Positions 28,419 to 48,127 of a stretch of DNA of 64,000 nt are shown piece after piece. The stretch is from an uncultured Clostridia bacterium. Its GTDB lineage: Bacteria; Bacillota; Clostridia; TANB77; CAG-508. The stretch spans positions 3,011-67,010 of the forward strand of contig CALXFG010000002.1 in NCBI GenBank assembly GCA_944387505.1, in the 5' to 3' direction. Every line of letters starts with the position of its first letter. The first letter of the stretch is position 1. The position numbers and the translations under genes were made by a program. The notes beneath the pieces are model-generated. The model had not been told where the DNA came from, did no database searches, and saw nothing but the letters and a program-made list of their open reading frames with translations.

Positions 28419-30098
28419 CTAGAATATCGTCATTCTAAATCCAATACTCCAATAAGTTTGATCACTAGTATTATTGCTTCTACTATTTACACTTAGTTCA
28501 GAAGAAGAACTACTCTCATATGATCCACCTCTGATGACACATGGTTGAGAACTTATATTTGAATTTTCCAAAGTCCATTCCCAAACATTTCCTGCTAAGT
28601 CGAATATACTTTGTTTGCCAAATGCACTATTTGCTCCTGTTGATAATAAGACAGATCTTGCTGAAGTTTTATCATAAGGTGCCTCTTGCCACTGCGAACC
28701 ATTATTTAATGAATATTGTGCACCTGCATTTACAATAGTATATATACTTGATTGATAATTTCCCCAAGATGTACTATTATTCCTTAATTGTGATTGAATT
28801 GTACCAATTGCGGTTCCTTGGTCTACTGCTTTTGCTTCTATATATTTTTGTACTAAATCCCATTGAATACCAAATAGTAAACTTCCTGAATATCCATTGG
28901 TTCCAGCTTTACTTGCCAAAGTCTGTGCCTCACTACAAGTTACCCAATTGATTGGATATTGATTTGCTTTTGACATTGGAACGATATCTGCAATAGATGT
29001 ATGTCCATTTCTCTTTACACTTGTTCCTGCTTCATATCTTGATATGTAGAAACCTCCATGTTGATAAACACTCTTTAACATTTTATGTTTCAATTCTGTA
29101 TATTCACTGCTTGATAATCCTGTTGCCCCATCTGAAGAATATGTATCACTTGCAGAAGTTCCATTTCTATATGTTGAAGCATAAGTATGTAAATCATTTT
29201 CAATATTTTGATAATCTTCATCTGTAAAATCTTTTATACTGATACCTGCTGTTGGATATACACTTGCTAGTTTTGGTACCTCTATCCATACATATTCATT
29301 TCCAGCTGAATCTTGAATAATTAATCCTGTTTCTAATGTTGTTCCTTCTACTTGTTTAAAATCAGAACTTGGTAAATATGGTCTCGTACCAGGTCCATTT
29401 GGTAGATTTCCTGTTCCTCCAATAATTTCATCATTAGCTTGATATGAATCAATACTTAATTTAATGTCCATAGCTGAAACAGCATCTGGATTATCTGTAA
29501 AGTATTTTCCTACTATATAGCCCCACTCTGTATCTAATTCATCATTATCACCAGGCCATTTAGCTGTAACCTTTAAATAGGCATCATCCTTTGCTGCTAC
29601 TTGCAGAGAATGTTCAATTTCCAATGTGAATGGGAATTTATCCGGATCATTTATGATAATACCTTTGGATATGAGTTCTCCTGTTTCTGGGTCTGACTCC
29701 AATGTTGGTTCTGCTATCGTGATATAATTCTCTGTCGTAGGTTGTTCCCCTTCTTGTACTAATTCATAAGATACCCCCACAATCGATATTGCTTGTATTC
29801 GGTAACTTAAATCTACTAATGCCTCTCCCTTATTTAAAATATCAACTGTAACGATTTGATCATCCATCTGAGGATATAATGTTGGAAACTCGATTCCAAT
29901 CGGATTTTCCTTTTTCTCTCCATTTATGTAATATTCCATGTCCCATGCTGCCACATGTATGTTTAAGCTTGGATTTAGTAGCTTTGTGTAGGCAAACCAT
30001 GCAAATGTTGTTAAAATAAGGGTAAAAATAAGTAATAAAGATTTTTTGATTCTATTATTTTGATTTGACTTTCTATGCTTACGCAATATATTACTCAT
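28419..30098 (-). CDS. Secreted fusion protein: SipW-cognate-like signal, then a TasA/camelysin-like N-domain, then a C-terminal FGE-sulfatase (SUMF1) family domain
   Basis: Signal: SLLLIFTLILTTFAWFAYTK. The N-domain is paralogous to 33041-33733 (WDMEYYI/WDVRYYV; LYPQMDD/LYPGMPD). C-terminal FGE-family motifs: GGFYISRYEAG, AGNVWEWTLE, VIRGGSYESS, IGFRMTIF. The start is trimmed to MSNILRKH behind the RBS AAAGGAGGG. The track start 30158 is in a REP. Confidence 0.75.
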   Translation of the reverse strand: MSNILRKHRKSNQNNRIKKSLLLIFTLILTTFAWFAYTKLLNPSLNIHVAAWDMEYYINGEKKENPIGIEFPTLYPQMDDQIVTVDILNKGEALVDLSYRIQAISIVGVSYELVQEGEQPTTENYITIAEPTLESDPETGELISKGIIINDPDKFPFTLEIEHSLQVAAKDDAYLKVTAKWPGDNDELDTEWGYIVGKYFTDNPDAVSAMDIKLSIDSYQANDEIIGGTGNLPNGPGTRPYLPSSDFKQVEGTTLETGLIIQDSAGNEYVWIEVPKLASVYPTAGISIKDFTDEDYQNIENDLHTYASTYRNGTSASDTYSSDGATGLSSSEYTELKHKMLKSVYQHGGFYISRYEAGTSVKRNGHTSIADIVPMSKANQYPINWVTCSEAQTLASKAGTNGYSGSLLFGIQWDLVQKYIEAKAVDQGTAIGTIQSQLRNNSTSWGNYQSSIYTIVNAGAQYSLNNGSQWQEAPYDKTSARSVLLSTGANSAFGKQSIFDLAGNVWEWTLENSNISSQPCVIRGGSYESSSSSELSVNSRSNNTSDQTYWSIGFRMTIF

Positions 30099-30131
30099 AT
30101 GTATTTTTCCCTCCTTTTTTCCTTTGTGTTT

Positions 30132-30214
30132 TGTCCTATTGAGATCGTTTTGTCCCATTGAGTTCGTTTTTCAACGGGACATTAATCCCATTGAGTTCGT
30201 TTTTCAACGGGACA
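30132..30214 (+). repeat. REP-like array: one truncated plus two full copies
   Basis: TGTCCTATTGAGATCGTTT, then TGTCCCATTGAGTTCGTTTTTCAACGGGACA (30151-30181), then TCCCATTGAGTTCGTTTTTCAACGGGACA (30186-30214). Confidence 0.9.
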
Positions 30215-30402
30215 TTAATCATTTGTCACTTTTAATTGTACTTCTTTATTCAATAAATTTCCTCTTTCATTTTACTAAATTTTTCTTTTTTCTTCAACTA
30301 TTTCTTGTCATTTTTTGAAATTTTATATAGCTTTTTCTTACTGCTTAAGACTAATGAATCATAAATTTTTGATTAAGTGAAAACTTAATATTTTGACAAA
30401 AA

Positions 30403-30464
30403 CCCACAGAAAAACGATCTCTATGGGACAAAATGTCCCGCAGAAAAACGATCTCTATGGGACA
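30403..30464 (-). repeat. REP-like array, 2 copies in the opposite orientation
   Basis: CCCACAGAAAAACGATCTCTATGGGACA (30403-30430) and TGTCCCGCAGAAAAACGATCTCTATGGGACA (30434-30464). Confidence 0.9.
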
Positions 30465-30556
30465 AAAAGAACCATAATTACCAATCATATTTGGTAATTA
30501 CAGTTCTTTTAATAGTATAATAACTTAAATAACTTTAATAACTTTATAATTTACTA

Positions 30557-31810
30557 TTATGTTGATTCTTCATCATCTTCATCATCTGCTGATCCTGGTT
30601 TGCTTAATCCAACGTCAATTGTTAATCCTCCACCTAGTGAAGCATAGTTGATACAGTCAACGTCTTGTCCTTCTAGCCATACATACATTCTCATGTGGAT
30701 ATATTTACCTGGTGCTATTGCAAAATCAGTTGAACCGTCTGTAACACTCTTTAATTGAACTGGACTTGCACCTACACCTGTATTAGGTGTTGTAACTGTG
30801 TTTTGTTTTACTAATCCATTCGTTGCTGCTCCTGTATCCCAATCATATATATTTGTTATAGTTTTTCCAACAGATGTTGTTGTTAAAGCATAAGTAGGTA
30901 ATTTTGCCTCTGCTGTAAATTTGCCATTTGCACCTACAATAGTGTTGCTTGGGTTATCTGCACTTGAAAGTTTTAGTCTGTTATTGTTTTGTACAATGTA
31001 ATCAACATGTGCTGCATATTTTGTTACTGCTGGACTAGGCTCTCCACTTGTTTGTTGTGCACCACTTGCATTTGGTTCCCAAATAGCTACATCTGTTATT
31101 GTACGAGCATCACCAGTAGTAGCTGCTAATATTTTAGCTTGATCTGGTGTGTTACTAACTAATGTATCATTAGCTAAAGATGATTCTTCATCATATATAG
31201 CAAATGCTACTCTTAGTGTGTTTTGTAAACCTGTTGCTTCTTTTGCTAATCCGCCATCTAATGTAATTGCTGAATTTGTTTCAAGTCTAAGTAAGTCATT
31301 TTGGTTGCCTGTAATAGCTGTTTGTGATGAAGAGTTTTGTAAGAAGAAGTCAATTGCATAAAATCCTTTTTCCGCTCCAGTCTCATCTGTTGTCATATTT
31401 TTTATATCCTTTAATACAATTCCTGATTCGTTTGTTCCCCTATACATGTTTAAGTCTTTTTCTCCAATACCTTCATCTTGTTTTGCTGTTGTAGAAACTG
31501 GTAGTAATTCAGTTGGTATTAAATTTGTACGACCATCATAAGGGTTTGCTAGTGATTTTCCATCTTCTAGGAATTTTTCTACTTCACCTTCTGTTAAACT
31601 AATTTCATTTGCCCAGTTTAAAGCATCTAATGAAATTTGTAAACCTTCAGCTACATTTACTTTACCTTTTAGTCCACTTAATGTTACGTTTTTCTGCGTA
31701 GAGAACCACGCATATGTTGATACAATCAATAAGATTGCTGTAAATGCTACTAATAAAATTAATGCATTTAATCTTTTTCTTGAGTTTCTTTGAATGTTTT
31801 CTTCTCTCAT
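30557..31810 (-). CDS. Secreted protein with a SipW-cognate-like signal (417 aa). Paralog of 31899-32684. Acidic C-terminal tail.
   Basis: Signal: ALILLVAFTAILLIVSTYAWFSTQKN. C-terminal motif MRMYVWLEGQDVDCINYASLGGGLTIDV, shared with its neighbour. Confidence 0.7.
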   Translation of the reverse strand: MREENIQRNSRKRLNALILLVAFTAILLIVSTYAWFSTQKNVTLSGLKGKVNVAEGLQISLDALNWANEISLTEGEVEKFLEDGKSLANPYDGRTNLIPTELLPVSTTAKQDEGIGEKDLNMYRGTNESGIVLKDIKNMTTDETGAEKGFYAIDFFLQNSSSQTAITGNQNDLLRLETNSAITLDGGLAKEATGLQNTLRVAFAIYDEESSLANDTLVSNTPDQAKILAATTGDARTITDVAIWEPNASGAQQTSGEPSPAVTKYAAHVDYIVQNNNRLKLSSADNPSNTIVGANGKFTAEAKLPTYALTTTSVGKTITNIYDWDTGAATNGLVKQNTVTTPNTGVGASPVQLKSVTDGSTDFAIAPGKYIHMRMYVWLEGQDVDCINYASLGGGLTIDVGLSKPGSADDEDDEEST

Positions 31811-31898: not shown

Positions 31899-32684
31899 TT
31901 ATCTTTCATCTTGTGGTGTTTCGTCTTCTTGTAAGATATGTTCTTCTGTAAGGGTCATATGCATTTTGATTTCTCCACCTATCAAGTCATCTAAACACTC
32001 AGGATCATCTCCCTCTACCCAAATGACAACTGTCCATTTATCGACATCTCCCACCTCAAAATTTTCTGTAAAATCTAACATGACGGTATCTTCATCTTTA
32101 AAAGGTGTTGTTTCTGGTTCAGGTTCTCCTGTTTCTCTGTTATTTTTCGCATAAACCGTTCTTTCGCCATTTTTAAAGACCATAACTCTGATTGCTTCAT
32201 CTACATTTTTTACGACATCATCTATTTTTATGGTTGTCCAGTAATTAATCGTGTCTTGTCCCATATTTTCCGCATAAAATGTATATGCTATATAATTTCT
32301 ACCATTATGTGATCCATTTCCTTCATTGTCTATATCTTCTGGCAACCAATCTATTGAAATGTCTGTGAAAAACTCTATATCTTGTGATCTTAAAAATGTT
32401 CTTGTATATTTATTATTAGGGTCTTCATATATGACCAATCCACTTTCTCTTCCATATTCACTATCCAGTGTTACAGTAAAGTTTTCTCCCCTATAAAATA
32501 TGGCCAATATGATATATACATTAATTAAGAGTAATACAATCAGTACTAAAAATATTTCAAAAGCAATACGTCTTTTATTTTTTCTTTTTTCCTTTTTTGC
32601 CTTCTTTTCTAGTTTTTCACCAATTGTTGCTTCATCAATTTGTTCTTCTAATGTTGGTGTATTGGTTGTTTCTTCATTTGCCAT
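31899..32684 (-). CDS. Membrane-anchored paralog of 30557-31810 (261 aa) with a cytoplasmic K/E-rich N-tail
   Basis: RBS AGGTGAG. TM segment: IAFEIFLVLIVLLLINVYIILAIF. Shared motifs: IRVMVF / LRVAFA, and VVIWVEGDDPECLDDLIGGEIKMHM. Confidence 0.7.
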   Translation of the reverse strand: MANEETTNTPTLEEQIDEATIGEKLEKKAKKEKRKNKRRIAFEIFLVLIVLLLINVYIILAIFYRGENFTVTLDSEYGRESGLVIYEDPNNKYTRTFLRSQDIEFFTDISIDWLPEDIDNEGNGSHNGRNYIAYTFYAENMGQDTINYWTTIKIDDVVKNVDEAIRVMVFKNGERTVYAKNNRETGEPEPETTPFKDEDTVMLDFTENFEVGDVDKWTVVIWVEGDDPECLDDLIGGEIKMHMTLTEEHILQEDETPQDER

Positions 32685-32835
32685 AATCTCACCTAGCTTT
32701 TCAAAATACTTTTTCTACATATTATACTAAAATTATACCCAGTCTTCTATTTTTTGTCAACGAATTTGTTATTACATTTTTATTACATTTTTGTTACAAT
32801 TTTCCTGTTTATTTACCATTTTATTACTTCTTTAT

Positions 32836-33040: not shown

Positions 33041-33733
33041 TTATGGATGAATCATTGAACTTGTTATTTTTACTGTTATTTCTATTGCCTTTGAAGGATC
33101 ATTTGCTTCATCTTGATAATACGCATAAGCCCCTTTACCAAATTGTGTATCCAATATATCTTTCGCTAGATTTTCATCCTCTGTTCCATTTCCTTGATAT
33201 TCCCAACTAGCATGGAACTGAAAAGTTCCTCCAGCAGCTGGTGTTGTTGTATCATCAACATATTCTCCGTCTAATCTTGTTTTATCATATGTATAGCTGA
33301 TATTAAAAGGATATTTGGTATCATCTGCAAATATATTGATTGTATTACCATCAGTCTGAATGATACCATCTTCTTTTAGTTTGTCTAACACATCTTGACC
33401 AAAAACCTTAACTGAGGTTAATTCATATTTTATACTAGTACTTGTTGTACTCATGTTAAAAATTCGTACGGTATCTTCTCTATCAGGCATTCCTGGATAT
33501 AATTGATCTATGGTGAATGTAACTGTTTCGTCTAATACTTCTTTATCATCTACATAATATCGAACATCCCATGGTGTTATGTTCGCCTCTAATCCACTCA
33601 TATTAACTGGTTGATTTGCTTGAAACCACGCAAAGGTATTTATTATTAATATTACAGAAAATACCGAAATTAGTAAAATTCTAGCTGGTAAACTTCGCTT
33701 TTTAATTCGTCTAAATTCACGTAATATATTCAT
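33041..33733 (-). CDS. TasA/camelysin-like secreted protein with a SipW-cognate-like signal (230 aa)
   Basis: RBS GGAGG. Signal: ILLISVFSVILIINTFAWFQANQP. Paralogous to the N-domain of 28419-30098. Confidence 0.7.
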   Translation of the reverse strand: MNILREFRRIKKRSLPARILLISVFSVILIINTFAWFQANQPVNMSGLEANITPWDVRYYVDDKEVLDETVTFTIDQLYPGMPDREDTVRIFNMSTTSTSIKYELTSVKVFGQDVLDKLKEDGIIQTDGNTINIFADDTKYPFNISYTYDKTRLDGEYVDDTTTPAAGGTFQFHASWEYQGNGTEDENLAKDILDTQFGKGAYAYYQDEANDPSKAIEITVKITSSMIHP

Positions 33734-33762: not shown

Positions 33763-34794
33763 CTAGTTTTCCCCTTTTTTCTTTTGTGTGTTTGTGTTCT
33801 TCTTTGTAGATTTCCTTGTGCTGGTATTCTTCTTTGTCCCTGTATTTGTATTCTTTTTGGTAGTCGACTTTGTATTTGTATTTGTCTTTTTGTTTTTCCT
33901 AGTGTTTGTTTTTGTATGTACATTTGTTGTCTTGGTTCCTGTTTTTGTATGGGTTGTCTTTGTATTTGTCGTCTTTGTGTTATTTGTTTTCTTATCGTCA
34001 CTTAACATCTGTTTCATTTGTTCATATATCATTTGTTCATGTGTGCTCTTTTCCAAATCTTCCTGATTATCTTTTGATTCTTCTTCCATGTAGATTTCAT
34101 GATCAGAGATGTCCTCTGTTTCTTCTATATCATCATTTTCCTCTTCATCATAATCTTCTATCTCTTCCTCTGTTTCTTCATCATAAAACGCCTCATCTAT
34201 ATCATTGCTTATATTGGCAATTCGTTTTACTTTGCGTTTTTTGGTTTTTTTAGGTGTATTAAATGCTATAAATACATTCAATACCAAAATGATAATGATG
34301 AAAAATATAGAATATATATTTGTTGCTAAATTATACAATACTGTCAAAATATTAGATTTATATTTTACAACACCATATACTTGTTCTTCACTAATTTGAG
34401 GGTCTTCAACACTATTACTTTGTAAACCTTTAGCATGGAAAGTCAAATTTCCATTTTCATCTGTATCAATTCCAACAACATTGTGCATGATGATTTTTCC
34501 TGCATATTCGCCAGTTTTACCTAAATACACAATATCATCTCCTACTTGAATATTTTTAGGATTCACTTCTTTACTGATTACCACTTCTCCTACTTCATAT
34601 TCAGGCTCCATACTTCCAGTAACAACTCTAAATATTTTATATCCACCTATTGATCCATTACTATTTGTCACTCTTTGCAGAACAATTACCATTGTTAAAA
34701 TTAACGCCATGACAACAATTATTTGGTATAATATAATGAATACAATCTTTATGATATTTTTTGTATTACGTTTTGATTTATTATCCTCCCTCAT
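33763..34794 (-). CDS. SipW-type (S26B, ER/archaeal-type) signal peptidase I paralog with a ~170-aa acidic plus K/T/N-rich C-terminal tail
   Basis: Boxes: FRVVTGSMEPEYEVGEVV, IIMHNVVGI, and HAKGLQSNSVEDP. After the C-terminal TM segment (IFFIIIILVLNVFIAF) come EETEEEIEDYDEEENDDIEETED and KKTNNTKTTNTKTTHTKTGTKTTN... Confidence 0.75.
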   Translation of the reverse strand: MREDNKSKRNTKNIIKIVFIILYQIIVVMALILTMVIVLQRVTNSNGSIGGYKIFRVVTGSMEPEYEVGEVVISKEVNPKNIQVGDDIVYLGKTGEYAGKIIMHNVVGIDTDENGNLTFHAKGLQSNSVEDPQISEEQVYGVVKYKSNILTVLYNLATNIYSIFFIIIILVLNVFIAFNTPKKTKKRKVKRIANISNDIDEAFYDEETEEEIEDYDEEENDDIEETEDISDHEIYMEEESKDNQEDLEKSTHEQMIYEQMKQMLSDDKKTNNTKTTNTKTTHTKTGTKTTNVHTKTNTRKNKKTNTNTKSTTKKNTNTGTKKNTSTRKSTKKNTNTQKKKGEN

Positions 34795-34797: not shown

Positions 34798-35421
34798 TTA
34801 ACCTTCTATCTTATAATTATCTCTCAATTTTTTTATTTCATATTTTTTTCTTTTGATTTTACGATTATTTATCTTATTGTCTCTAGAATTAACAAGTATG
34901 CATATAATCACGATCAGAATACATATATTCATAAATCCTCTTACATTTTGTATGTAATTGACGAATTTTCCTATTTTCGGAATAATCCAGACAACTTTAC
35001 CATATATATTCTGTATATCTACTGGTTCTGTATCTACTACTTTATTATTATCCCCCTTAGTAATAATCTGTTTTTCTCCTTTTTCTGCTATCATTTCTGA
35101 TATCCTATGTGAAATGATTCTATCTTCTTGTTTAAATGTGATAATATCTCCAACTTTTAAATCTTCTATATTACAACTTTTTACAATTGCTAAATCATCC
35201 TTGCAAAATGTCGGCTCCATACTTTCAGAAATGATATTAAACATATATATTCCAAAAATATGTGTTTTTTCTTCTACTGATAATATTAAATTCACGATAA
35301 AAAGAACGATTAAACTAGTCAGTATAACAAATTTTATTACCTTTTTGGTTCTTTTTTTATTTCTTATTTTGTGAGAAATTTTTTCAACATCATATTCCAA
35401 TTTTGCTCTCAGCTCCATCAT
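34798..35421 (-). CDS. sipW: SipW-type signal peptidase I (canonical boxes)
   Basis: ISESMEPTFCKDDLAIV, RIISHRISEM, TKGDNNKVVDTEP. The start is set at MMELRAKL (35421) because the track N-terminus (35422-35514) is the translation of a REP array. The RBS is weak, so the start is uncertain. Confidence 0.75.
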   Translation of the reverse strand: MMELRAKLEYDVEKISHKIRNKKRTKKVIKFVILTSLIVLFIVNLILSVEEKTHIFGIYMFNIISESMEPTFCKDDLAIVKSCNIEDLKVGDIITFKQEDRIISHRISEMIAEKGEKQIITKGDNNKVVDTEPVDIQNIYGKVVWIIPKIGKFVNYIQNVRGFMNICILIVIICILVNSRDNKINNRKIKRKKYEIKKLRDNYKIEG

Positions 35422-35427
35422 TTTCTT

Positions 35428-37281: not shown

Positions 37282-37286
37282 ACAGT

Positions 37287-40184: not shown

Positions 40185-41738
40185 TTAAGACATCTTTTTA
40201 AGTCTTAATAAGAATTCTATACATTCGCCCATTTTTCCTTTTCCAAAGTTTTTGTCTAAGAAATCTATATATCCGTCGATTTCATCTCTAATTAATGTTA
40301 AGTTTAGTCCTTCAAATTTTCTTAATACTTTTTTTGCCATGAAATAGTCTACAGCTTCTGTTTCATCTCCACCACATGCTACATATACTGGTACAAATTT
40401 TTTCATGTGTTTTACAATACGGTTACCAAATGCAACTCTAAAGTGTTTGATGGTATAGTTATCCATATCTTCTATTTTTTTCAAAGTTGCTGGTGATATT
40501 GCATAGTCTACCATTGCTTTATCAAATAATCCATTTAAATATGAATAGTTTACATCAAGTGCATCAACATCATCTGCTTCAAATGCTACACCTTTTTCAT
40601 TGATATCGATTGGCATCGCTCTATCGTATACCTTATCTGTTACCATGAATGTTGAGTCGTCATTGTTGATGGTTCCGATATACCATGCATTAGGTGGAAT
40701 TTGTAATTTTCCTTTGATTAATTTCTTTGGATCTGTTGGCCATGAACTTTGTACAATTTCAATTTTCCAATCTTTTGTACTGTGCATTTCTAGAATAGAT
40801 AGCATTTCTGCAAAATAGTATTCCACACGAGCTAAGTTCATCTCGTCTAAGATAACTGTATAAATTTCATCCGTATATCCTGCTTCATATAAATATGCTA
40901 AGAAGTCTGTTTCATTAAATTTCTTAGTGAATTCATTTAAGTATCCAAATATATCTGTTCTATCTCTCCAAGATGGTTGTACAGATGCAACACATGATGG
41001 ATGTTTTACAAAGTTACCCCATGCAAGAGATATAGATGTTTTACCTGTACCAGAAATACCTTGTAAGATAACTAGTTTAGTTGATGCAATAGCTGATACA
41101 AATAACCTTATCATTTTTTCACTATAATATAATTTCAACTTGCTTGCAGCAAAATTTCTAAACATATAGCAAAACTCTGGTAATGTAAAGCTATTGTGAT
41201 AATCTTTTTGTTTATATTTTGCAAATTCTTCATCTATCATTGTTAATTTAGAGAATCTGCTTTGGCTATTTGGATCAATTTGTTCTTCATTATTTGCTTC
41301 TGATTGAGCAGCAGCAAGCGCAGCTTTATCCATACCTGTACTGATACCATTTGGATTAACACCTAATTCTGGTGACTTCATATTTAATAATTTTAATTTT
41401 TCGTCTACTAATTCTTCTACTTGTCCATTTAAGGTATCAATTTGTTTTAATAATTCTTCTTGATCTACAATCTTTTTCCTCCATTTCATATGTCTTTTCA
41501 AGAAAAAGATTAAAATTCCAACAATTCCTCCAATAACAATAAGCATGCAGATAATGGCTAATCCTGTTAAAAACCATTCTGAAACCTTAAAATCATTGGC
41601 ATAATTTTGGATAATTCCCCAATATCTTGGTATATTAAATATATTTACAATCCCATTCCAAAGTCCACCAAAAATATCTCCAAATCCAGAGAAAAATTGG
41701 CTTAAAAATTCAAATAAAAATCTTCCATATGTTTCCAT
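40185..41738 (-). CDS. Membrane-anchored McrB-family AAA+ (AAA_5) NTPase
   Basis: N-terminal TM segment (WFLTGLAIICMLIVIGGIVGILIFFL) plus a coiled coil. Walker A: LQGISGTGKTS. McrB-type Walker B signature: VILDEMNLARVEYYFAEMLSILE. Also YIGTINNDDSTFMVTDKVYDRAM (compare GTMNxxDRS...D.A..RR). Confidence 0.75.
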   Translation of the reverse strand: METYGRFLFEFLSQFFSGFGDIFGGLWNGIVNIFNIPRYWGIIQNYANDFKVSEWFLTGLAIICMLIVIGGIVGILIFFLKRHMKWRKKIVDQEELLKQIDTLNGQVEELVDEKLKLLNMKSPELGVNPNGISTGMDKAALAAAQSEANNEEQIDPNSQSRFSKLTMIDEEFAKYKQKDYHNSFTLPEFCYMFRNFAASKLKLYYSEKMIRLFVSAIASTKLVILQGISGTGKTSISLAWGNFVKHPSCVASVQPSWRDRTDIFGYLNEFTKKFNETDFLAYLYEAGYTDEIYTVILDEMNLARVEYYFAEMLSILEMHSTKDWKIEIVQSSWPTDPKKLIKGKLQIPPNAWYIGTINNDDSTFMVTDKVYDRAMPIDINEKGVAFEADDVDALDVNYSYLNGLFDKAMVDYAISPATLKKIEDMDNYTIKHFRVAFGNRIVKHMKKFVPVYVACGGDETEAVDYFMAKKVLRKFEGLNLTLIRDEIDGYIDFLDKNFGKGKMGECIEFLLRLKKMS

Positions 41739-41760: not shown

Positions 41761-41823
41761 TTCCCATTAAGTTCGTTTTTCTATGGGACATTTGTCCCGT
41801 TGAGATCGTTTTTCTATGGGACA
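41761..41823 (+). repeat. REP-like element, 2 tandem copies (41761-41790 and 41793-41823)
   Basis: TTCCCATTAAGTTCGTTTTTCTATGGGACA and TGTCCCGTTGAGATCGTTTTTCTATGGGACA. The second copy encodes the last codons and the stop of gene 41814-42863. Confidence 0.9.
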
Positions 41824-42863
41824 AATATTACGTTATTGAACATCTCTTTATTGCTTTTTATGTCTTTATATAATGACAATTTTTGAGGTACAATCACCAT
41901 TTTAAACATTTTTAATTGTTCCACATCTTCTATACTTTTTGCTTCATTATCTAATGTAATTGTAAAGTTGTAACCTTTTTTCGTGTATTCTAATACACTT
42001 TTTTGATTTTTTATATAGTCAGAATATAGAATATTTAAACTGATTTTATCTTGTAATTCTTGATTTCCAAGAATCGATAAAATACTATCTAATTTTTGTT
42101 TCTTTTTGAATAGTGTGCTTGTAAATTCTGCAATATATTTATCATTAAAATTTCCATTGATGATATCTGAAATGACAACAACACTTAATAATATATATTC
42201 TACTTGCAATTTATCTTCTGCTATAATTCCCTCATGATATACTTTTTCGATAGCAGTTTCGCTATATTGCATTGGCATTTTCACTTTCTGTTCTAGTGTA
42301 GCAAAATATATGTCATCTTTAGATTTGCAATTTTCAAATTGTAATACAAATTCATCTGTATCAAATTTTTCCAAAAATATTTCTTTTTCTAGCATATCAT
42401 TTTTGATTTCTTCATACAGTTTTTTTTCTGCACTTTGTGAAATTCCTGTCTGAAATAATTCATTTGCTGTTTGTATCATTTTACTAACAATTTCTTTTAT
42501 ATTATCAATCGTCTTAAAATTTTCTACATTTCTAACATTATCAAAAAATAAAATATATGCAAATAATTCTTTCAAATTGTGAATGGTATTTAATTTGCTT
42601 TGCTTTTCATTTAAGTTTTCAGATTCTTCTTCGCATTTTTTCATTAAAATATCTTCTTTATATTCTAGCTCTTCTAATATTCTTAAATAAAAAGCTCTTG
42701 CAGGCTTGTCTGCATTCTGAATATTATAATATCTAGCATTTATATATGTTTTTAAATATTCATCCACTAACTTTTCGTCATATTGTTTCGCCAATAATGT
42801 CTTCATATATTTTTTTATTTTCTTTTCTGTAAATGTTATATATGTATCCATTAAGTTGTTCAT
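41814..42863 (-). CDS. Cytoplasmic hypothetical protein (349 aa), upstream partner of the McrB-like ATPase
   Basis: RBS GGAGG. No TM segment and no recognisable motif. Confidence 0.6.
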   Translation of the reverse strand: MNNLMDTYITFTEKKIKKYMKTLLAKQYDEKLVDEYLKTYINARYYNIQNADKPARAFYLRILEELEYKEDILMKKCEEESENLNEKQSKLNTIHNLKELFAYILFFDNVRNVENFKTIDNIKEIVSKMIQTANELFQTGISQSAEKKLYEEIKNDMLEKEIFLEKFDTDEFVLQFENCKSKDDIYFATLEQKVKMPMQYSETAIEKVYHEGIIAEDKLQVEYILLSVVVISDIINGNFNDKYIAEFTSTLFKKKQKLDSILSILGNQELQDKISLNILYSDYIKNQKSVLEYTKKGYNFTITLDNEAKSIEDVEQLKMFKMVIVPQKLSLYKDIKSNKEMFNNVIFVP

Positions 42864-42944: not shown

Positions 42945-43529
42945 CTAAATGATTTGTTTAGCATCAATATCTAATTTTATATATTCTATCAAATCAGAAA
43001 ATTCTGCATTTGTATCATTTTCTTTTGGAAATGTTACTTTTATCACATAATTATCTGTCAAATCTTCTCCTTGTATCATTTGTGAAGGCTCTATCGATAT
43101 TTCTCTGTAATAAGTCCCATCTTCATCTGTGGTTATTTTTTGTTGTGTAGTTAAGATTTCGCCATTTTTTTCTATTGCATATTCTAATGGTAAATTGGTT
43201 GTTGTTGTTATGGTTAATGCATATTCCAAATCTGTTTCTGCTCTTTTATTGATTGTTCCATCTTCATCTGCCTCAAAATTTGATACGGAAAAAGAATAAT
43301 CAAATGAATTATTTGATGGATATATATCTTTTATAATCATATTTGCTGATTGAAAATCATCATGAAGCATCCAGAAAGCAACATCTACATCTTTTTCTGA
43401 CGTTGCTACTGTTTGATATCTTGATAATGTTCTTACTATAAAAATAATCGCAATAATGATAATTGCTATTAAAAAAAGTATAAGCATACTTTTTTTCAAT
43501 TTTTTCTTATCCAACATCTTTTTTCTCAC
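42945..43529 (-). CDS. Small N-terminally anchored/secreted beta-rich protein (194 aa). Paralog of the frameshifted gene 47251-48127.
   Basis: TM segment: MLILFLIAIIIIAIIFIVRTLSRYQTV. The DLEYALTITT motif is shared with DLEYQLSCET. It overlaps the upstream sipW by 23 nt. Confidence 0.65.
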   Translation of the reverse strand: MRKKMLDKKKLKKSMLILFLIAIIIIAIIFIVRTLSRYQTVATSEKDVDVAFWMLHDDFQSANMIIKDIYPSNNSFDYSFSVSNFEADEDGTINKRAETDLEYALTITTTTNLPLEYAIEKNGEILTTQQKITTDEDGTYYREISIEPSQMIQGEDLTDNYVIKVTFPKENDTNAEFSDLIEYIKLDIDAKQII

Positions 43530-44031
43530 CTATTTTTTCTTTATATGCTATCATCACTATAAATAATATAATGGTTATCACTAGTGGTATGATAACATGC
43601 ATATCTGTAAATACTTTTTTCCAAACTTCTACATGATTGATAATATACACTGCTTTACCTATCACTTGACTTTTTTCTATTGGCTCATCTTGAGTATTAT
43701 TATTATCTCCTTTTGTGATGATGGTATCTCCATCAATTTGTTCTATTCTATGTGTAATAAGTGCATTGTCCTGTTTGTATGTTATAATATCATTTTCCTT
43801 GATTTCATCACTTATTTTGATAATTATAATATCACCTATTTCAATGGTTGGTGACATACTTCCAGTTTCTGTACTAAGTATAGAATAGCCAAATATATTT
43901 ACATATTCTTTATTTTGAATATTTAATTGTATAAATCCCCATATGACAAGAATAGCAATGATACTTAATACTAAAATTATTAATTCTACTACAACTTTTT
44001 TAATAATGTTTAATACCTTATGTTGTTTCAT
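43507..44031 (-). CDS. sipW: SipW-type signal peptidase I (canonical boxes, no tail)
   Basis: STETGSMSPTIEIGDIIII, ALITHRIEQI, TKGDNNNTQDEP. N- and C-terminal TM segments. It overlaps both neighbouring genes. Confidence 0.8.
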   Translation of the reverse strand: MKQHKVLNIIKKVVVELIILVLSIIAILVIWGFIQLNIQNKEYVNIFGYSILSTETGSMSPTIEIGDIIIIKISDEIKENDIITYKQDNALITHRIEQIDGDTIITKGDNNNTQDEPIEKSQVIGKAVYIINHVEVWKKVFTDMHVIIPLVITIILFIVMIAYKEKIGEKKDVG

Positions 44032-44662
44032 TGCCTATCTCCTCTCCTGTATATTGTTTTAAATTAATTTCTAATGGAATGTTTATCTTTGCATTTTGTG
44101 TTTGACCTAATGCTGAATCTGCTTCATTATTTTCTTCTATATTTTCCCATTCAAAATATAATCTGATATGATTTAAATATTTGTCATTTATTCTTGCAAG
44201 AGGAATGATAGCCTCATGCATATTTGTTTCATTATTTGTATATACATCATCATTTGTAAATTGTTCTGTTTCATCAGTTTTTTGGAAATAATTTTCCACA
44301 TTCACTAACTTTAATTTTGCTGTTGTTACAGCATCTAATTTTATATTTAATGTATATAAAACAGATACATCTGTGGTTGTTGGATCGATAATAATTTCAA
44401 AATACGCCTGTGTCCCTGGTGCTATTTTTTGGCTTTTAACATGTTCAGAATCCAGATACACAAGATTGTCTTCTGTCATGTTAAAAGTCAAATTTTCATC
44501 ACCTGAAGATATGTCTGTTTCATTTACTTTAATTGACCATACACCTAATAGATTTGTATATTCTCCTTCTAATTGGTCTTTATATAAAGCATACATATTT
44601 GCTATTTCAAATAAGGTTATAATTAACATTATTAATACTAAAATTCTTAATAATTTTTTCAT
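44018..44662 (-). CDS. TasA/camelysin-like secreted protein (214 aa). Paralog of 37287-38027.
   Basis: Signal: LRILVLIMLIITLFEIANMYALYKDQ. Shared motifs: IAPGTQAYFEIIIDPTTTDVSVLY, IRLYFEWENIEE, INLKQY. Confidence 0.7.
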   Translation of the reverse strand: MKKLLRILVLIMLIITLFEIANMYALYKDQLEGEYTNLLGVWSIKVNETDISSGDENLTFNMTEDNLVYLDSEHVKSQKIAPGTQAYFEIIIDPTTTDVSVLYTLNIKLDAVTTAKLKLVNVENYFQKTDETEQFTNDDVYTNNETNMHEAIIPLARINDKYLNHIRLYFEWENIEENNEADSALGQTQNAKINIPLEINLKQYTGEEIGNETT

Positions 44663-45556
44663 TTATTCTTCCTCTTTTGATTTTGTAGTTCTTGGCTTAC
44701 GAGTTGTTGTTGTAGCTTTAGCTGTTGTTTTTCTTGTTGTACCTGTTTTTCTCGCTGTACTAGCTTTTGAAGTTGTTCCTGCTTTTTTTGTAGTACTTGT
44801 TTTCCTCGTTGTACTAGCCTTAGAACCTGCACTTGTCTTTGAACCTGCTCTTGTTCTTGTGCTTGTACTTGCTCTAGTTGTGGTTTTTGGACTTGATTTT
44901 TTCGTTGTTGTTCTGGTAGTTTTCTTTGGCCTTACAACAACCTCTTCCTCTTCGTAGACCTCATCCTCATCCTCGTCATATTCATCATCATCGTACTCTT
45001 CCTCTTCTTCTGCTTCTACTTCTAGTGCTTGTTTTTTCTTTTGCTTATTAAGATATTTGATTTCCATTACTAATTCAAATACTTCTTGTAAGAATAGTAA
45101 TAATGATACTACTACGATACAGAATAAGTATCCCCATCTAGATTCTAGTAGGCTTAATATATATCCCCATCCTTCTATAACAATTGTGTCATCTACTTTT
45201 CCGATAAAGTAATCATTTGCATAACTTTCTTCATTATCTACAACATATACCGTATGGGTTCCTTGTTGTGTTTTTGCTTGTAAAGTTGTGGTAATAACTT
45301 CATATTCTGAGCTATTTAATACTTTATACATGAATATTTTGTCTCCAACTTGTACATTTCTATCATTTGTTTCTTTTATTAATAGTATAGAACCTTGTTT
45401 ATATTCAGGCTCTAAAGAGTCATCATTAACTATATAAACCGTATAATCTCCAATTACACTATTATTATAATCATTATATGATAATAGTAATACTGTAACT
45501 GTAATAGCAATAATAGCATATAATACAAATAATATAGTTCCTAGTACTTTTTTCAT
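44663..45556 (-). CDS. SipW-like paralog with degenerate catalytic boxes and an acidic plus T/K/R/S-rich C-terminal tail. Probable pseudo-peptidase.
   Basis: The Ser box reads NDDSLEPEYKQGSILLI. There is no xHRx box at the homologous position (VITTTLQ) and no KGDNN box. After the C-terminal TM segment come EVEAEEEEEYDDDEYDEDEDE and KKTTRTTTKKSSPKTTTRASTSTRTRAGSK... Confidence 0.65.
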   Translation of the reverse strand: MKKVLGTILFVLYAIIAITVTVLLLSYNDYNNSVIGDYTVYIVNDDSLEPEYKQGSILLIKETNDRNVQVGDKIFMYKVLNSSEYEVITTTLQAKTQQGTHTVYVVDNEESYANDYFIGKVDDTIVIEGWGYILSLLESRWGYLFCIVVVSLLLFLQEVFELVMEIKYLNKQKKKQALEVEAEEEEEYDDDEYDEDEDEVYEEEEVVVRPKKTTRTTTKKSSPKTTTRASTSTRTRAGSKTSAGSKASTTRKTSTTKKAGTTSKASTARKTGTTRKTTAKATTTTRKPRTTKSKEEE

Positions 45557-45616: not shown

Positions 45617-46054
45617 TTATTGTGTTATTGGTTGTAGTTGTATTGATTGTGTACCTGTTAAATTTCCTTTTAATACAACACTGATGTCATATTGTTCTCC
45701 AACAGCTAAACTTTGTATCCAAGTTTGCATTTGTCCTAATACTTCTCCATCAGCACCAACCAAAATGGCATTTAAACTTTCATTTTCTACTGGATTATCT
45801 GTTGTGTTTAATATAGACATAGATACCATTGTTTCATCTTGACTATCTAAATATTCCATTGATACATTTGTTACTTCCATACTTTTATAGCTTGTATCTG
45901 GTAAAGCAACTACTGTTTGTTGTGGCTCCTCTTGTGTTTTATCTTTATTAACATTTCTAACTATTAAAACAACAGCAACAACTACTATAATAATCGCGAT
46001 AATTGCAATTAATAGTATTCCCAACATTTTTTTACCTTTTCTTACTTTTCTCAT
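45617..46054 (-). CDS. N-terminally anchored small beta-rich extracytoplasmic protein (145 aa, hypothetical)
   Basis: RBS GGAGGAG. TM segment: MLGILLIAIIAIIIVVVAVVLIV. Confidence 0.6.
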   Translation of the reverse strand: MRKVRKGKKMLGILLIAIIAIIIVVVAVVLIVRNVNKDKTQEEPQQTVVALPDTSYKSMEVTNVSMEYLDSQDETMVSMSILNTTDNPVENESLNAILVGADGEVLGQMQTWIQSLAVGEQYDISVVLKGNLTGTQSIQLQPITQ

Positions 46055-46149: not shown

Positions 46150-46272
46150 TGTCGCATTAGGTTCATTTGTCAATGTCCCGTTGAGATCGTTTTTCTGTGG
46201 GACATTTTCTCCCGTTGAGATCGTTTTTCTGCGGGACATTTTCTCCCGTTGAGATCGTTTTTCTATGGGACA
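46150..46272 (+). repeat. REP-like array of 4 copies (1 variant-B fragment plus 3 at a 35-nt period), abutting the RAYT stop codon
   Basis: TGTCGCATTAGGTTCATTTGTCAA, then TGTCCCGTTGAGATCGTTTTTCTGTGGGACA (46174-46204), TCCCGTTGAGATCGTTTTTCTGCGGGACA (46210-46238) and TCCCGTTGAGATCGTTTTTCTATGGGACA (46244-46272). Confidence 0.92.
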
Positions 46273-47046
46273 TTAACTTTGCATTGCTTTTTCTACTATT
46301 TTTCTATTAATTCCTAATACTCTTGATATTTGTGCTTTTGAGGTTCCTTTAATAATTTTTAATTCCTTCAATTTTGCATCTCTTGTATCTTTATCATACA
46401 TGCGAAATAGTCTCACGTTTTTTATTTTTAAAATCTGCTGGATTTTTTCTTTTACCTGTTCGTCTGTAATTTTATAGGCAAATTCATATTCTACTTCTTC
46501 ATTTATTAGATTTTCTTTACGACTATGATATATGATAAAATTTTTTATTGCTTCTTTTTTTGTTTGACCAAACATGGATAAAATAGGATTTGGATTTATA
46601 ATTTTAGAATTAAATAAAAACTCTTTATAACTGCTCCATTGATAATCTTCAGTTCTTGCAATATTCGCTTTTAATGGATTTTGATGAATATATCTACATA
46701 ATGTATACAAATATTCTCTAGTTTCAACACTTTTACTTAAAAATCTACCTTGAAATAAATGACCTTCTTTTTTATATTTTTTAGCAAAATATAATGAATA
46801 TGATATTGCCAAACTTTGCATTATTTTTGATAATACATCTTGACGATCAAAAATAATTATATGTACATGGTTGGTCATTAAACAATATTCATATATTTCG
46901 CAATGGTATTTCTCTTTTATTATCTTAAGTATTTTTAAAAACTTGCAATAATCTTGATGATCATAAAAAATATCTTGCTTATCATTTCCTCGTAGCATGA
47001 CATGATATATCTTTGTCATACTACCTTTTCTTATTTTATAGGGCAT
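46273..47046 (-). CDS. REP-associated tyrosine transposase (RAYT; IS200/IS605-type Y1 HUH transposase family) with a C-terminal HTH extension
   Basis: HUH motif: CLMTNHVHIIIF. Catalytic-Tyr motif: LCRYIHQNPLKANIA (RAYT-type YxxxNP). YHVMLRGN at the N-terminus. C-terminal HTH-like segment: GTSKAQISRVLGINRKIVEKA. RBS AAGGAGAG. Confidence 0.85.
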   Translation of the reverse strand: MPYKIRKGSMTKIYHVMLRGNDKQDIFYDHQDYCKFLKILKIIKEKYHCEIYEYCLMTNHVHIIIFDRQDVLSKIMQSLAISYSLYFAKKYKKEGHLFQGRFLSKSVETREYLYTLCRYIHQNPLKANIARTEDYQWSSYKEFLFNSKIINPNPILSMFGQTKKEAIKNFIIYHSRKENLINEEVEYEFAYKITDEQVKEKIQQILKIKNVRLFRMYDKDTRDAKLKELKIIKGTSKAQISRVLGINRKIVEKAMQS

Positions 47047-47170
47047 TTGCGTCTCTCCTTACTATATTTTTTTATTTTCCCCTATTTGCCCCCTAAAGTA
47101 TAGACAGTATAGCATATTTCTTTTCATTTTGCCATACTTTTCAATTAATTTGCTTAAATTTTTCAAAAAA

Positions 47171-47245
47171 GTCCCACAGAAAAACGATCTCAATGGGACA
47201 CACAAATGTCCCACAGAAAAACGATCTCAATGGGACATTGCGACA
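47171..47245 (-). repeat. REP-like array, 2 copies in reverse orientation plus a variant-B arm fragment
   Basis: GTCCCACAGAAAAACGATCTCAATGGGACA (47171-47200), TGTCCCACAGAAAAACGATCTCAATGGGACA (47207-47237), then TTGCGACA. Confidence 0.92.
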
Positions 47246-47250
47246 AATGA

Positions 47251-48127
47251 TTATTCATCATTTACAGTAATAACAGAAGTTGCATCACCCAATGGATAGG
47301 TATAATCTTGAGACATATCTACTTTATAAAATTTAATATTTTTAGCAGATTCCTTATCCATTGTAAAAGTAAATTTTTCTACATATCCATCACCATTTAC
47401 TTCTTCACTGCCTTCTACTCTATTTAGATAAGCTTCATCATTTAAGTCTATTCTTACAACATTTGGATTAAATTGTAATGAAACATTGCCTCCTGTTTCA
47501 TGGATATTTACCATTTTCAAAATCAAATAGTTCCTATTTGCAACATCTTCTATTTCATAACTATTGGCTAAAACTTGTTGTATTCTTAATGAAATCTCAC
47601 AAGAAATTTCTTTCTGATATGGTTCTTGTGTACTAGCTTTTATTCTTATCGTAATAATATCGTTTTGCTCTATTTGCGTTTTTGGTGTTACCACAATCTT
47701 GATTCTGCTAACATTATTAGCAGTGTCTCCATTTTTTGCATATATGATTCCTGTTGTTTCTGTAGGTCCACCAGCTTCATTGATTCCGCAATGTTACTTT
47801 ATCTGTATCTGGTGTTTCACACGAAAGTTGATATTCTAAGTCATAATCTAATCTTAATAATGTATTTTGATAACTATATAAATCAAAATTGATTTCATAA
47901 TTGTCTACACCACCCCAATTTTCATATTGGTATGTTGCATTATCAAGCGTTAATAAATCACTTGTAAAGTAAAATGCTTTTGAAGTGAAATAGGCTTCTC
48001 TTGCTTGGAAATATACATATCTACCAAATACTGAAAATGTAATGACTAGTATTAATAAAATAAACAGCAATATGATTTTTTTGATTCTTTTTTCTTTTTT
48101 TCTAATTCTTGCATGTTTTCTTTCCAT
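47251..48127 (-). pseudogene. N-terminally anchored beta-rich protein split by a +1 frame change near 47775-47795. Either a frameshifted gene or two ORFs. Paralog of 42945-43529.
   Basis: ORF 47777-48127 ends ...DKVTLRNQ*. The frame of ORF 47251-47694 is open upstream to ...HCGINEAGGPTETTGIIYAKNGDTANNVSRIKIVVTPKTQ..., overlapping the first ORF's end. There is no ATG or RBS for the second part (the track start is an internal GTG). Confidence 0.55.

Follow-up and report, generated by a model that had tools for sequence, protein, structure and literature searches.

A Clostridia gene cluster that joins SipW-type signal peptidases and secreted beta-sandwich proteins to a membrane-anchored McrB-family GTPase: a candidate surface-assembly system of the CoCoPALM class

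The locus and the closest described systems

The 20-kb gene cluster considered here (positions 28419–48127, minus strand) lies in a 64,000-nucleotide stretch of contig CALXFG010000002.1 from an uncultured Clostridia bacterium, hereafter the window (G+C ~30%). It encodes four intact SipW-type signal peptidases and one inactive paralogue, seven N-terminally anchored beta-sandwich proteins, a McrB-family GTPase anchored by a transmembrane (TM) segment, a DUF2357 partner and cytoplasmic accessory proteins, and it adjoins the gene of a giant DUF285 adhesin. Bell, Makarova, Wolf & Koonin (eLife 2024) named such an architecture CoCoPALM and described it as an NxD-clade GTPase fused to an FtsB-homologous domain with TM and coiled-coil helices, accompanied by an adjacent DUF2357 McrC homologue, usually with a coiled-coil, and by signal-peptidase-family genes (PMC11090510). 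The class received two sentences and a supplementary figure in that paper, the rest being deferred to a forthcoming publication; a literature search returned neither this follow-up nor any later use of the name. We consider the cluster to be, with a probability of roughly 0.55, a chromosomal and envelope-spanning apparatus of monoderm gut Firmicutes that couples a GTPase to the assembly of surface fibres or adhesins.

Since the TM-anchored GTPase, its DUF2357 partner and the neighbouring signal-peptidase-family genes fit the published description, the locus matches CoCoPALM and is best regarded as a member of this named but uncharacterised class. The word ‘undescribed’ used for it in the initial annotation, which had been made from the DNA letters, must accordingly be withdrawn. 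Both combine, in Bacillota, a McrB-like GTPase of the NxD clade that bears an N-terminal TM segment with a DUF2357 partner and signal-peptidase genes. The main text and the two supplementary files of the CoCoPALM paper that were searched contain neither the subunit families and their motif, nor the dead peptidase, the giant adhesin, the cytoplasmic accessory proteins or the frameshifted subunit described below. The wording ‘pilus assembly factors’ in that paper probably reflects similarity to SipA/LepA. With five SipW paralogues and seven subunit genes, as compared with about two and five in the minimal core, the present locus is an expanded CoCoPALM.

Among experimentally better known systems, the tapA-sipW-tasA operon of Bacillus subtilis and the sipW-tasA-calY operon of Bacillus cereus likewise place a dedicated SipW/Sec11-type peptidase beside secreted beta-rich substrates in a monoderm host, and their substrates carry a comparable signal end (T-aromatic-A followed by x-aromatic). 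The present locus differs from them by its many peptidase and subunit paralogues and by the lack of detectable TasA/Peptidase_M73 homology, and the Bacillus operons in turn have no counterpart of its dead peptidase, its GTPase/McrC-N pair or its cytoplasmic proteins. In Clostridium perfringens, SipW-dependent Ig-like subunits encoded by sipW-bsaA-bsaB-bsaC form surface-anchored polymers; the operon includes an adhesin-type partner, the VWA protein BsaC, BsaA was placed in the TasA family by iterative hidden Markov model (HMM) searches, and the release of BsaA and BsaC past the wall requires type IV pilus (T4P) proteins (PMC11580942). Unlike here, the energising machine is encoded elsewhere in that organism, as a canonical T4P system.

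In sortase-dependent pili, SipA has a signal-peptidase fold without catalytic residues and is required for pilus assembly. Streptococcus pyogenes SipA/LepA (4n31, 4k8w) includes the nearest solved relative of the present peptidases: the closest structure to o43507 is SipA 4n31 (E 2e-4), followed by SEC11A/C, and the inactive o44663 lineage would be analogous to SipA. Contrary to the streptococcal case, the peptidases are of the endoplasmic reticulum/archaeal (SipW) type by NCBIfam rather than of the P-type, active paralogues occur as well, and no sortase or LPXTG motif was identified. No sortase family turned up when the locus proteins were scanned against Pfam and NCBIfam, and neither LPXTG nor a C-terminal anchor was seen in the subunit C-termini checked by eye (o33041 ends in ...ITSSMIHP and o44018 in ...EEIGNETT). 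Sortase-type pili were considered and rejected on the grounds of these scans and C-termini.

Type IV filaments (T4P, the type II secretion system (T2SS), Com and archaella) are similar in possessing small subunits with an N-terminal hydrophobic helix and a processing motif, as well as a dedicated membrane peptidase; the logic of a cytoplasmic hexameric NTPase serving major, minor and tip-adhesin-like subunits may be shared too. There is nevertheless no homology: the NTPase is of the McrB rather than the PilB type, no PilC-like platform is present here, and an aspartyl prepilin peptidase cutting before the hydrophobic segment is replaced by a Ser/His signal peptidase whose predicted site lies at the C-terminal end of that segment.

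The remaining relatives concern the GTPase, o40185. Escherichia coli McrBC and the CoCoNuT proteins CnuB/CnuC share with it the AAA+ GTPase fold and motifs and a DUF2357 activator partner; its identity to a CoCoNuT-like GTPase encoded on a Deinococcus plasmid next to a DUF2357 gene amounts to 36% (E 1e-56). In contrast to these enzymes, a TM anchor takes the place of the nucleic-acid-binding N-terminus, and no PD-(D/E)xK or HEPN nuclease was detected. Type IV restriction by McrBC is characterised by a DNA-binding McrB N-terminus and a PD-(D/E)xK domain on McrC, neither of which was detected in o40185 and its partner o38911. In Staphylococcus aureus, the McrB-family NTPase PcdA has been exapted to an envelope function, the positioning of the division site; it is a soluble protein whose nucleotide pocket is degraded and whose partners are FtsZ and DivIVA (PMC12272431). 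The GTPase studied here differs from PcdA in its invariant motifs (Walker A, Walker B and NxD) and in its partners, which are secreted proteins and peptidases.

Conservation of the set and predicted processing of the secreted subunits

When two GTPase motifs were used as search patterns, the GTPase was detected in at least 595 species-level genomes, with identities above 50% in all matches listed; the listed carriers belong to Clostridia, Acutalibacteraceae, Bacilli and Erysipelotrichaceae or are metagenome-assembled genomes labelled ‘Tenericutes’/‘Mollicutes’. Candidate relatives among them include a metagenome-assembled Thomasclavelia sp., Ruminococcus sp. CAG:488, Clostridium sp. CAG:567 and metagenome-assembled Acutalibacteraceae. 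Co-occurrence was counted in 39 new loci, each with at least 19 kb of sequence. The DUF2357 gene was present in all 39 loci, the active SipW of the o38044 type in 34, the dead SipW in 33, the o37287 type in 32, family D in 31, family A in 30, o41814 in 28, o31899 together with o30557 in 27, o42945 in 25, o44018 in 24 and o35528 in ten. The same gene set and order were recovered where the GTPase had diverged to 51–65% identity, and in relatives whose GTPase is 57% identical the other proteins had fallen to 24–40% identity with the gene order unchanged and the giant protein and uvrA as bounds. On this comparative evidence the cluster is one conserved system and not a chance neighbourhood. The test by gene neighbourhood that the initial annotation had proposed came out in its favour, as did its inclusion of the NTPase in the system.

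At first sight the two kinds of gene occur independently elsewhere, so that an ordinary sipW/TasA-like matrix operon might have come to lie beside an unrelated McrBC-like pair. The synteny data effectively refute such a juxtaposition, to which we attach a negligible probability: set and order recur as described, the genes overlap or abut, and one protein retrieved in the representatives search (P0478, 456 aa) combines a SipW-like region at its N-terminus with a family A domain (residues 273–452). P0478 is either a fusion of the Rosetta-stone type or a merged gene call. The system is kept in very small genomes (~1.26 and 1.55 Mb). On the 1.55-Mb chromosome OV788638.1 two complete divergent copies are found, at loci L026 and L074, whose GTPases are 58% identical and which each have their own peptidases and subunits.

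The initial annotation had counted five SipW-type peptidases. Four of these exceed the curated TIGR02228 cutoff of 51.85 bits, namely o34798 (34798–35514; 102.8 bits, with matches to PF00717 and PF10502 too), o38044 (38044–38910; 85.2 bits), o43507 (43507–44031; 72.6 bits) and o33763 (33763–34794; 63.0 bits), whereas o44663 (44663–45556) remains below it at 40.3 bits. Alignments of 28–96 orthologues per lineage point in the same direction. The catalytic Ser and His are retained in 96/96 and 96/96 sequences of the o38044 lineage, in 54/56 and 55/56 of that of o43507, in 34/37 and 35/37 of that of o34798 and in 27/28 and 28/28 of that of o33763; the o44663 lineage keeps the Ser in only 31 of 84 orthologues and the His in only seven. 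Because it fails TIGR02228 and its lineage has lost the catalytic His and often the Ser, o44663, a core component of the set, is by these sequence criteria a conserved pseudo-peptidase, and the count of active enzymes has to be lowered to four.

All five paralogues, the dead one included, have one N-terminal and one C-terminal TM segment, and o33763 and o38044, the latter representing the core type, are paralogues of each other (blastp 2e-42). The peptidase genes are ordered with respect to the subunit genes: 43507 lies directly upstream of 42945, 38044 of 37287 and 33763 (with 34798 just before it) of 33041, and the dead-peptidase gene 44663 is upstream of subunit gene 44018. Both o33763 and o44663 bear a long low-complexity C-terminal tail after the second TM segment, an acidic block followed by a T/K/R-rich one, and o38044 carries a long K/T-rich N-terminal extension, likewise of low complexity. 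Given the usual SipW topology these tails would be cytoplasmic; they are much shorter in the L026 orthologues.

Every beta-rich protein of the cluster has a single N-terminal hydrophobic segment. In o28419 (TTFAWF), o30557 (STYAWF) and o33041 (NTFAWF), the T(F/Y)AWF sequence singled out by the initial annotation was indeed found straight after the hydrophobic core, and columns derived from 35–85 sequences per family reveal that six subunit families have a common signal-end motif, [T/S]-[F/Y]-[A/S/G]↓[W/K/R/L]-[F/Y], where the arrow marks the predicted cleavage site. The motif reads N-T-(F/Y)-A-W-F in family A, with A and W in 62 of 62 sequences, S-T-Y-A-W-F in the o30557 family, (T/M/S)-Y-A-L-(Y/F) in family B, T-Y-A-(K/R)-Y in family B', T-(L/Y/F)-(S/A)-(R/K)-Y in family C and (T/V)-F-(G/A/S)-(R/K)-Y in family D. 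Small residues occupy positions -3 and -1 and aromatic ones -2 and +2, a layout that fits the signal peptidase I rule, the TasA site and the TIGR04088 pattern. TasA is cleaved at T-W-A↓A-F, and its signal end was read as T-W-A-A-F from a query sequence that matches Bacillus genomes at up to 99%. A resemblance to SipW-cognate signals had been proposed from the outset; it holds for the motif and for the o30557 family, of which 8 of 13 members match TIGR04088 at E≤1 (best E 2.9e-4), but o30557 itself scores 15.3 bits, under the cutoff of 19, and no TIGR04088 match was obtained in the other subunit families.

In the window, family A is represented by o33041 (33041–33733; NTFA↓WF) and by the N-terminal module of o28419 (28419–30158), family B by o44018 (44018–44662; NMYA↓LY), in which the signal peptide or anchor is followed by a beta-sandwich, family B' by o37287 (37287–38027; RTYA↓RY), family C by o42945 (42945–43529; TM segment 14–32, RTLS↓RY) and family D by a gene split into o47777 and o47251 (47251–48127; TM anchor, SVFG↓RY in o47777). 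The 417-aa secreted subunit o30557 (30557–31810; STYA↓WF) is accompanied by the membrane-anchored beta-rich protein o31899 (31899–32684; TM segment 44–62). The motif columns of o31899 read I-L-S-I-I-Y, and as the cleavage motif is absent this protein probably remains uncleaved, as an anchor for o30557 or a partner to it.

Four paralogous pairs had been proposed among these proteins. Two stand firmly, o28419 with o33041 (blastp 5e-12) and o37287 with o44018 (2e-14), and a third, o30557 with o31899, is weak (blastp 0.15; hhalign 86%). The pairing of o42945 with o47251 is unsupported: o42945 is nearest to o37287 (hhalign 95%), and o47251, listed as a separate anchored protein, forms one gene with o47777 that is intact in 11 relatives. 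Between families, hhalign probabilities of 97% (A with o30557), 86–90% (A with o42945), 73–80% (A with B), 95% (B with o42945) and 86% (o30557 with o31899) were obtained, values that may be inflated by the common TM segment. The o30557 family alignment contains strongly conserved blocks. A C-terminal motif, W(L/V)EGQDxDCxNxAS(xGG), is strongly conserved in o30557 and o31899, its first part reading W(L/V)EG(Q/D)DxxC when the two are taken together; within the o30557 family E, G, Q, both D, C, N, A and S do not vary, and its single conserved Cys could serve a metal site or an intermolecular disulfide.

Family A is large, a profile search of 1.84 billion representative proteins yielding 716 clusters at 50% identity, 308 of them at E≤1e-10, and the motif occurs in at least 131 of the 150 representatives listed. 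No Pfam family covers its core among the representatives scanned. Longer members carry C-terminal additions (FGE-sulfatase, DUF6273, fn3, Big_2 and CHB_HEX), the pattern expected of modular adhesins. The FGE-sulfatase/C-type-lectin-like C-terminus of o28419, for which the initial annotation had suggested a search with PF03781, does match that model (residues 471–576, 27.6 bits against a cutoff of 23.3), and the same fusion was seen in 4 of 60 family A representatives. The homologues listed in a search with the family B alignment were close relatives, with no Pfam domains.

Whether these proteins belong to the TasA/camelysin family, as had been suggested, was examined by sequence, profile and fold. 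No window protein matches PF12389 (Peptidase_M73) at E≤0.1, nor does any of 13 family A homologues at E≤1 or any of 60 representatives at E≤0.01. Alignment of the subunit families to 11 Bacillus TasA sequences by hhalign gave probabilities of at most 1.9%, a weak negative because the TasA alignment is narrow (82–99% identity). The profiles of family A, family B and the o30557 family retrieved zero, zero and one meaningless match among PDB sequences. AlphaFold2 models of o33041 and o44018, built from shallow alignments (≥60% identity) and of medium confidence, place TasA outside the Foldseek top 50 in both cases. The o33041 model (pLDDT, the predicted score of the local distance difference test, 72.9) comprises a TM helix (residues 15–38), a disordered stretch (40–51) and a beta-sandwich (57–177) without a Foldseek match at E≤1e-3. 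The o44018 model (pLDDT 75.8), likewise a beta-sandwich, has weak matches (E 7e-4 to 1e-2), among them collagen-binding domains (CNA, RspB, Cnm, Ace), RetS, two pilins, RrgB and LrpA, and the donor-strand cannula subunit CanA. The match to CanA (9hdi; E 2.5e-3, probability 0.98, TM-scores 0.36/0.42) is at a level equal to that of many CNA-type adhesin domains; CanA itself has been assigned to the TasA superfamily (bioRxiv 10.1101/2024.12.30.630787). Family membership of the subunits in TasA/Peptidase_M73 is therefore not supported by these tests, and these sequences and models suggest SipW-substrate-like proteins of the Ig/jelly-roll kind.

The cluster lies downstream of a giant surface protein gene (48525–63983), as had been pointed out; its open reading frame (ORF) runs off the window after more than 5152 aa and reaches 7952 aa, with a PF03382 (DUF285) match, on a longer public contig. 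The C-terminal ~1500 aa are 25–33% identical to giants beside distant loci. Of 75 loci, many of them incomplete, 34 have a homologue of the C-terminal 1600 aa no more than 10 kb away from the GTPase. The C-termini of the giant adhesin and of ten homologues, read by eye, show no LPXTG or other C-terminal anchor. This conserved neighbour without an anchor lends some weight to an exporter resembling a T2SS, in which the subunits would form a short pseudopilus or piston that is driven by the GTPase and pushes the giant adhesin and other cargo through the peptidoglycan. Five to seven small subunit families, one NTPase and dedicated peptidases mirror T2SS/T4P logic, and the dependence of the SipW substrates BsaA and BsaC of C. 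perfringens on T4P proteins to pass the wall provides a precedent (PMC11580942). We nonetheless judge such an exporter unlikely, as there is no homology to any T2SS/T4P component, no cargo recognition element was identified and the adhesin-type C-terminal domains of some subunits suggest that the subunits are displayed themselves.

The GTPase and the proposed assembly of surface fibres

The GTPase o40185 (40185–41738) matches McrB in the PDB (6hz4, E 3e-5) and the PADLOC family PDC-M26A (E 1.8e-36), and has one strong TM segment (residues 62–80), so that its initial description as a TM-anchored McrB-like NTPase was correct. The segment is followed by a K/R-rich and E/L/K-rich stretch kept in orthologues, and no DNA- or RNA-binding domain was detected in the N-terminal region, which the anchor occupies. 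Walker A (GISGTGKTS), Walker B (ILDEMN) and the GTINNDDSTF motif are invariant. Taken alone, NNDD is ambiguous between NxD+D and NxxD; since NHDE of the CoCoNuT-like GTPase aligns to it without gaps, the sequence places o40185 in the NxD clade, and the match to E. coli McrB (E 3e-5) is far weaker than that to the CoCoNuT-like protein. No other gene of the locus is as conserved, its ratio of non-synonymous to synonymous substitution rates (dN/dS) being 0.046 as compared with 0.12–0.27 for its neighbours. The most distant relative fetched (40% identity), at locus L037 (8446–17342) of Bacillales bacterium UBA7278, has a DUF2357 partner of 484 aa and a weakly SipW-like gene, and EAL-like, PNP_UDP_1 and GGDEF/EAL genes lie downstream, which hints at a link to cyclic di-GMP in this variant.

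None of o38911, o41814, o35528 and o37144 has a TM segment, in agreement with the cytoplasmic location that had been assigned to the first three. For o38911 (38911–40032) the initial annotation had missed the identity: on account of a Pfam DUF2357 match (PF09823, 34 bits against a cutoff of 23.3, residues 61–173) it is assigned as a McrC N-terminal-domain (McrC-N) protein. No other domain and no nuclease domain was detected in it, and the profile of its family found no match among PDB sequences. The gene of o41814 (41814–42863) is directly upstream of that of the GTPase. Its family profile gave a marginal match (E 0.002, residues 52–128) to MazG-like all-alpha NTP pyrophosphohydrolases (2q73/2q5z); with no consistent Pfam family, a MazG-like identity was not adopted. 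The 539-aa K/E-rich accessory protein o35528 (35528–37147), found in expanded loci only, has no family match, and its start is overlapped by the small ORF at 37144–37290 (45–48 aa). This small ORF, noted earlier as a 45-aa frame, proved to be conserved (87% identical in L026 and 46–54% in L023/L024) and is annotated as a 45-aa gene on public contigs.

The origin of the GTPase calls for consideration of a defence or conflict system derived from McrBC/CoCoNuT, whose surface proteins would sense or block contact with phages or conjugative elements and whose membrane GTPase would signal a response. GTPase and DUF2357 protein derive from components of type IV restriction and are grouped with the CoCoNuTs in the NxD clade, the best PADLOC match is itself a defence candidate, a transposase has been inserted in the locus, and in some genomes a second, divergent copy is present (L026 and L074). 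When the locus proteins were scanned against Pfam, NCBIfam and PADLOC, however, no nuclease (PD-(D/E)xK, HEPN) or other effector domain was detected in any component, the McrC homologue included; the GTPase is unusually conserved (dN/dS 0.046), with identities above 50% in all matches listed, from Clostridia to Bacilli; the flanks are housekeeping genes, not defence islands; and in plasmid and phage collections no full-length GTPase homologue was found, the matches being confined to the AAA+ domain at no more than 36% identity. The low dN/dS, the housekeeping flanks and the absence of full-length homologues from plasmids and phages together indicate a housekeeping-like behaviour. A function in defence hence appears distinctly unlikely to us, and a mobile defence island was rejected on the basis of the flanks and of these collections.

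A third proposition, that an FtsB-like anchored GTPase organises septal or polar wall-associated proteins as a division or envelope-remodelling module, is improbable. The FtsB homology reported by Bell et al. for the N-terminal TM/coiled-coil region (PMC11090510), the example of PcdA as a McrB-family NTPase that positions the division site (PMC12272431) and the retention of the system in the two small genomes would agree with it. No FtsB similarity was detectable in o40185, gene content and copy number vary, the locus is linked to adhesin-like proteins, and no division or peptidoglycan-synthesis genes occur in the neighbourhood.

We favour the GTPase-coupled assembly of surface fibres or adhesins, for which the following scheme may be drawn. 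The subunits would be exported by Sec and retained through their hydrophobic segment until SipW paralogues cut after the A/S/G of the motif, whereupon the freed subunits would join up on the membrane's outer surface to form a heteromeric filament or stalk. Disorder is predicted for the mature N-terminal segment, the residues right after the motif having pLDDT values below 50 in both models (40–51 in o33041 and 32–37 in o44018); this is a single indirect hint at the donor-strand complementation by which, in the proposal of the initial annotation, the subunits would polymerise. That SipW enzymes process the subunits is suggested by the retention of Ser and His in four lineages, by the motif common to six families and by the TIGR04088 matches in the o30557 family; a surface-adhesive character is suggested by the beta-sandwich models, the Foldseek matches to CNA-type adhesins, pilins and CanA and the adhesin-type C-terminal additions. 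The best candidate for the major subunit is o30557, because a perfect promoter and a terminator of its own flank it and because, by its sequence blocks, no other subunit is as conserved. The adhesive parts would be the giant adhesin and o28419, with its lectin/FGE-like C-terminus, the latter being a candidate tip subunit. The dead peptidase o44663 may bind signal peptides without cutting them and act as an assembly chaperone or platform, in the manner of SipA/LepA in streptococcal pili. On the cytoplasmic face, a GTPase hexamer activated by the nuclease-less McrC-N protein would, with o41814 (and with o35528 and the small ORF in expanded loci), couple GTP hydrolysis to assembly, wall extrusion or turnover by way of the TM segment and juxtamembrane helix of the GTPase. 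An envelope role of a McrB-family NTPase has a precedent in PcdA, the nearest solved relative of the peptidases is the pilus-assembly factor SipA, and in C. perfringens SipW-dependent BsaA depends on an NTPase-driven machine to get past the wall.

Several points weigh against this scheme. The class is known from genes alone, and both the filament and the cleavage are predicted. To our knowledge, McrB hexamers do not perform mechanical work on proteins or membranes, and the systems to which the GTPase is related (CoCoNuT, McrBC and PADLOC PDC-M26) act in defence or are candidates for it. As to the subunits, neither of the two models (pLDDT 73–76, shallow alignments) has a strong structural match (best E ~1e-3), and no sequence, profile or fold test put these proteins in the TasA family. 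Finally, the N-terminus of o40185 gave no FtsB/DivIC match in Pfam or among PDB sequences, and its crude heptad score was no better than that of shuffled sequences.

It is tempting to go further and to speculate, tentatively, that CoCoPALM is a third, non-homologous NTPase-powered filament or secretion machine of monoderms, analogous to type IV filaments. The McrB GTPase and McrC-N protein would then stand for the PilB-type ATPase, endoplasmic reticulum-type peptidases (one of them dead) for the prepilin peptidase, and a new superfamily of T-Phi-A↓W/K-Phi beta-sandwich ‘pilins’ would build a heteromeric fibre displaying the giant adhesin, a hungry-codon +1 frameshift tuning the stoichiometry of one subunit in one clade. 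Even the more cautious reading, as a GTPase-coupled assembly apparatus, would if true mean that a DNA-restriction GTPase now serves as engine or regulator in a surface assembly machine of at least ~600 species of gut Clostridia and Bacilli, mostly uncultured and small-genomed. It would represent an unrecognised route to Gram-positive pili or adhesins and would probably help to determine how such bacteria adhere to and colonise human and animal guts. For a class so far known by name only, the present analysis contributes an inventory of the parts and a diagnostic signal motif, along with the conserved pseudo-peptidase, the linkage to a giant adhesin and candidates for the major and tip subunits.

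A split subunit gene and other features of the region

Family D is encoded by a single ORF of 283–325 aa in 11 related genomes; in the window and in 14 other species-level genomes it is split by a +1 frame change. The switch from frame 0 to +1 occurs at the same residue in all 15 split genomes, within GAT AAA GTN ACN (T/C/A)T(A/G) CGG (T/A)AT (T/A/C)AA, whose CGG (approximately 47786–47788 in the window) is invariant in 15/15. CGG belongs to the rarest codon class, with four occurrences among the 16003 codons of the window ORFs (0.25 per 1000) as compared with 343 for AGA, and the frameshift site is one of the four. Its invariance is not explained by either frame alone: in frame 0 it encodes Arg, for which AGA would be expected, and its C falls on a wobble position when the +1 frame is read. 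In most genomes a +1-frame stop lies just upstream of the CGG and the 0-frame stop two to three codons downstream. Read in the +1 frame, the stretch of 28 codons from the 0-frame stop to the first GTG of o47251 encodes a segment with 61% protein identity between the window and L026, and both halves of the gene are under purifying selection (dN/dS 0.12 and 0.22). The site is a candidate, on sequence grounds, for programmed hungry-codon +1 frameshifting of the Ty1/Ty3 type, the alternative being a stably maintained split into two ORFs; if confirmed, it would be a rare case of bacterial programmed +1 frameshifting outside prfB. The three other CGG codons all fall in a 308-aa ORF (9518–10444, plus strand), which may be of foreign origin or no real gene.

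As had been described for the cluster, all genes from 28419 to 63983 are on the minus strand and most neighbouring starts and stops abut or overlap. The best site of a promoter scan over the 20 kb is a perfect sigma-70 consensus, TTGACA-17-TATAAT (32732–32760, 12/12 matches), upstream of o31899-o30557, and a terminator (30403–30427) is located 3' of o30557. A frame of 45 aa at 30351–30488 (o30351) was not counted as a gene, because it overlaps this terminator and lacks a conserved homologue. A further terminator (28338–28374) follows o28419; it belongs to a pair of adjacent G+C-rich hairpins (28338–28407, stems of 17 and 14 bp, on opposite strands) between o28419 and a divergent DUF4364 gene (27783–28334), which look like a bidirectional terminator.

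Two genes close to family D appear extraneous or accessory. A Y1/REP-associated tyrosine transposase (46273–47046; PF01797 58.5 bits, NF047646 62.2 bits), outside the system, separates o45617 from the family D gene as an insertion that L026 lacks at that position and that near-identical metagenome contigs possess. The small N-terminally anchored FxLYD-domain protein o45617 (45617–46054; NF038353 25 bits against a cutoff of 23, TM segment 13–31) was present in 1 of the 39 distant loci and is an accessory of close relatives only.

The flanking genes are of the housekeeping kind, namely uvrA in L032/L033 and, in the window, ldh and a gene for an exoribonuclease of the RNB family. A related complete chromosome, whose GTPase is 91% identical, measures 1.55 Mb. 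The window also contains a germination receptor operon of the gerA/gerB/gerC type (18997–23089, plus strand; GerA 529.6 bits, Spore_permease and GerAC), and the host is therefore taken to be a spore-forming, walled Firmicute despite a genome of only ~1.5 Mb.

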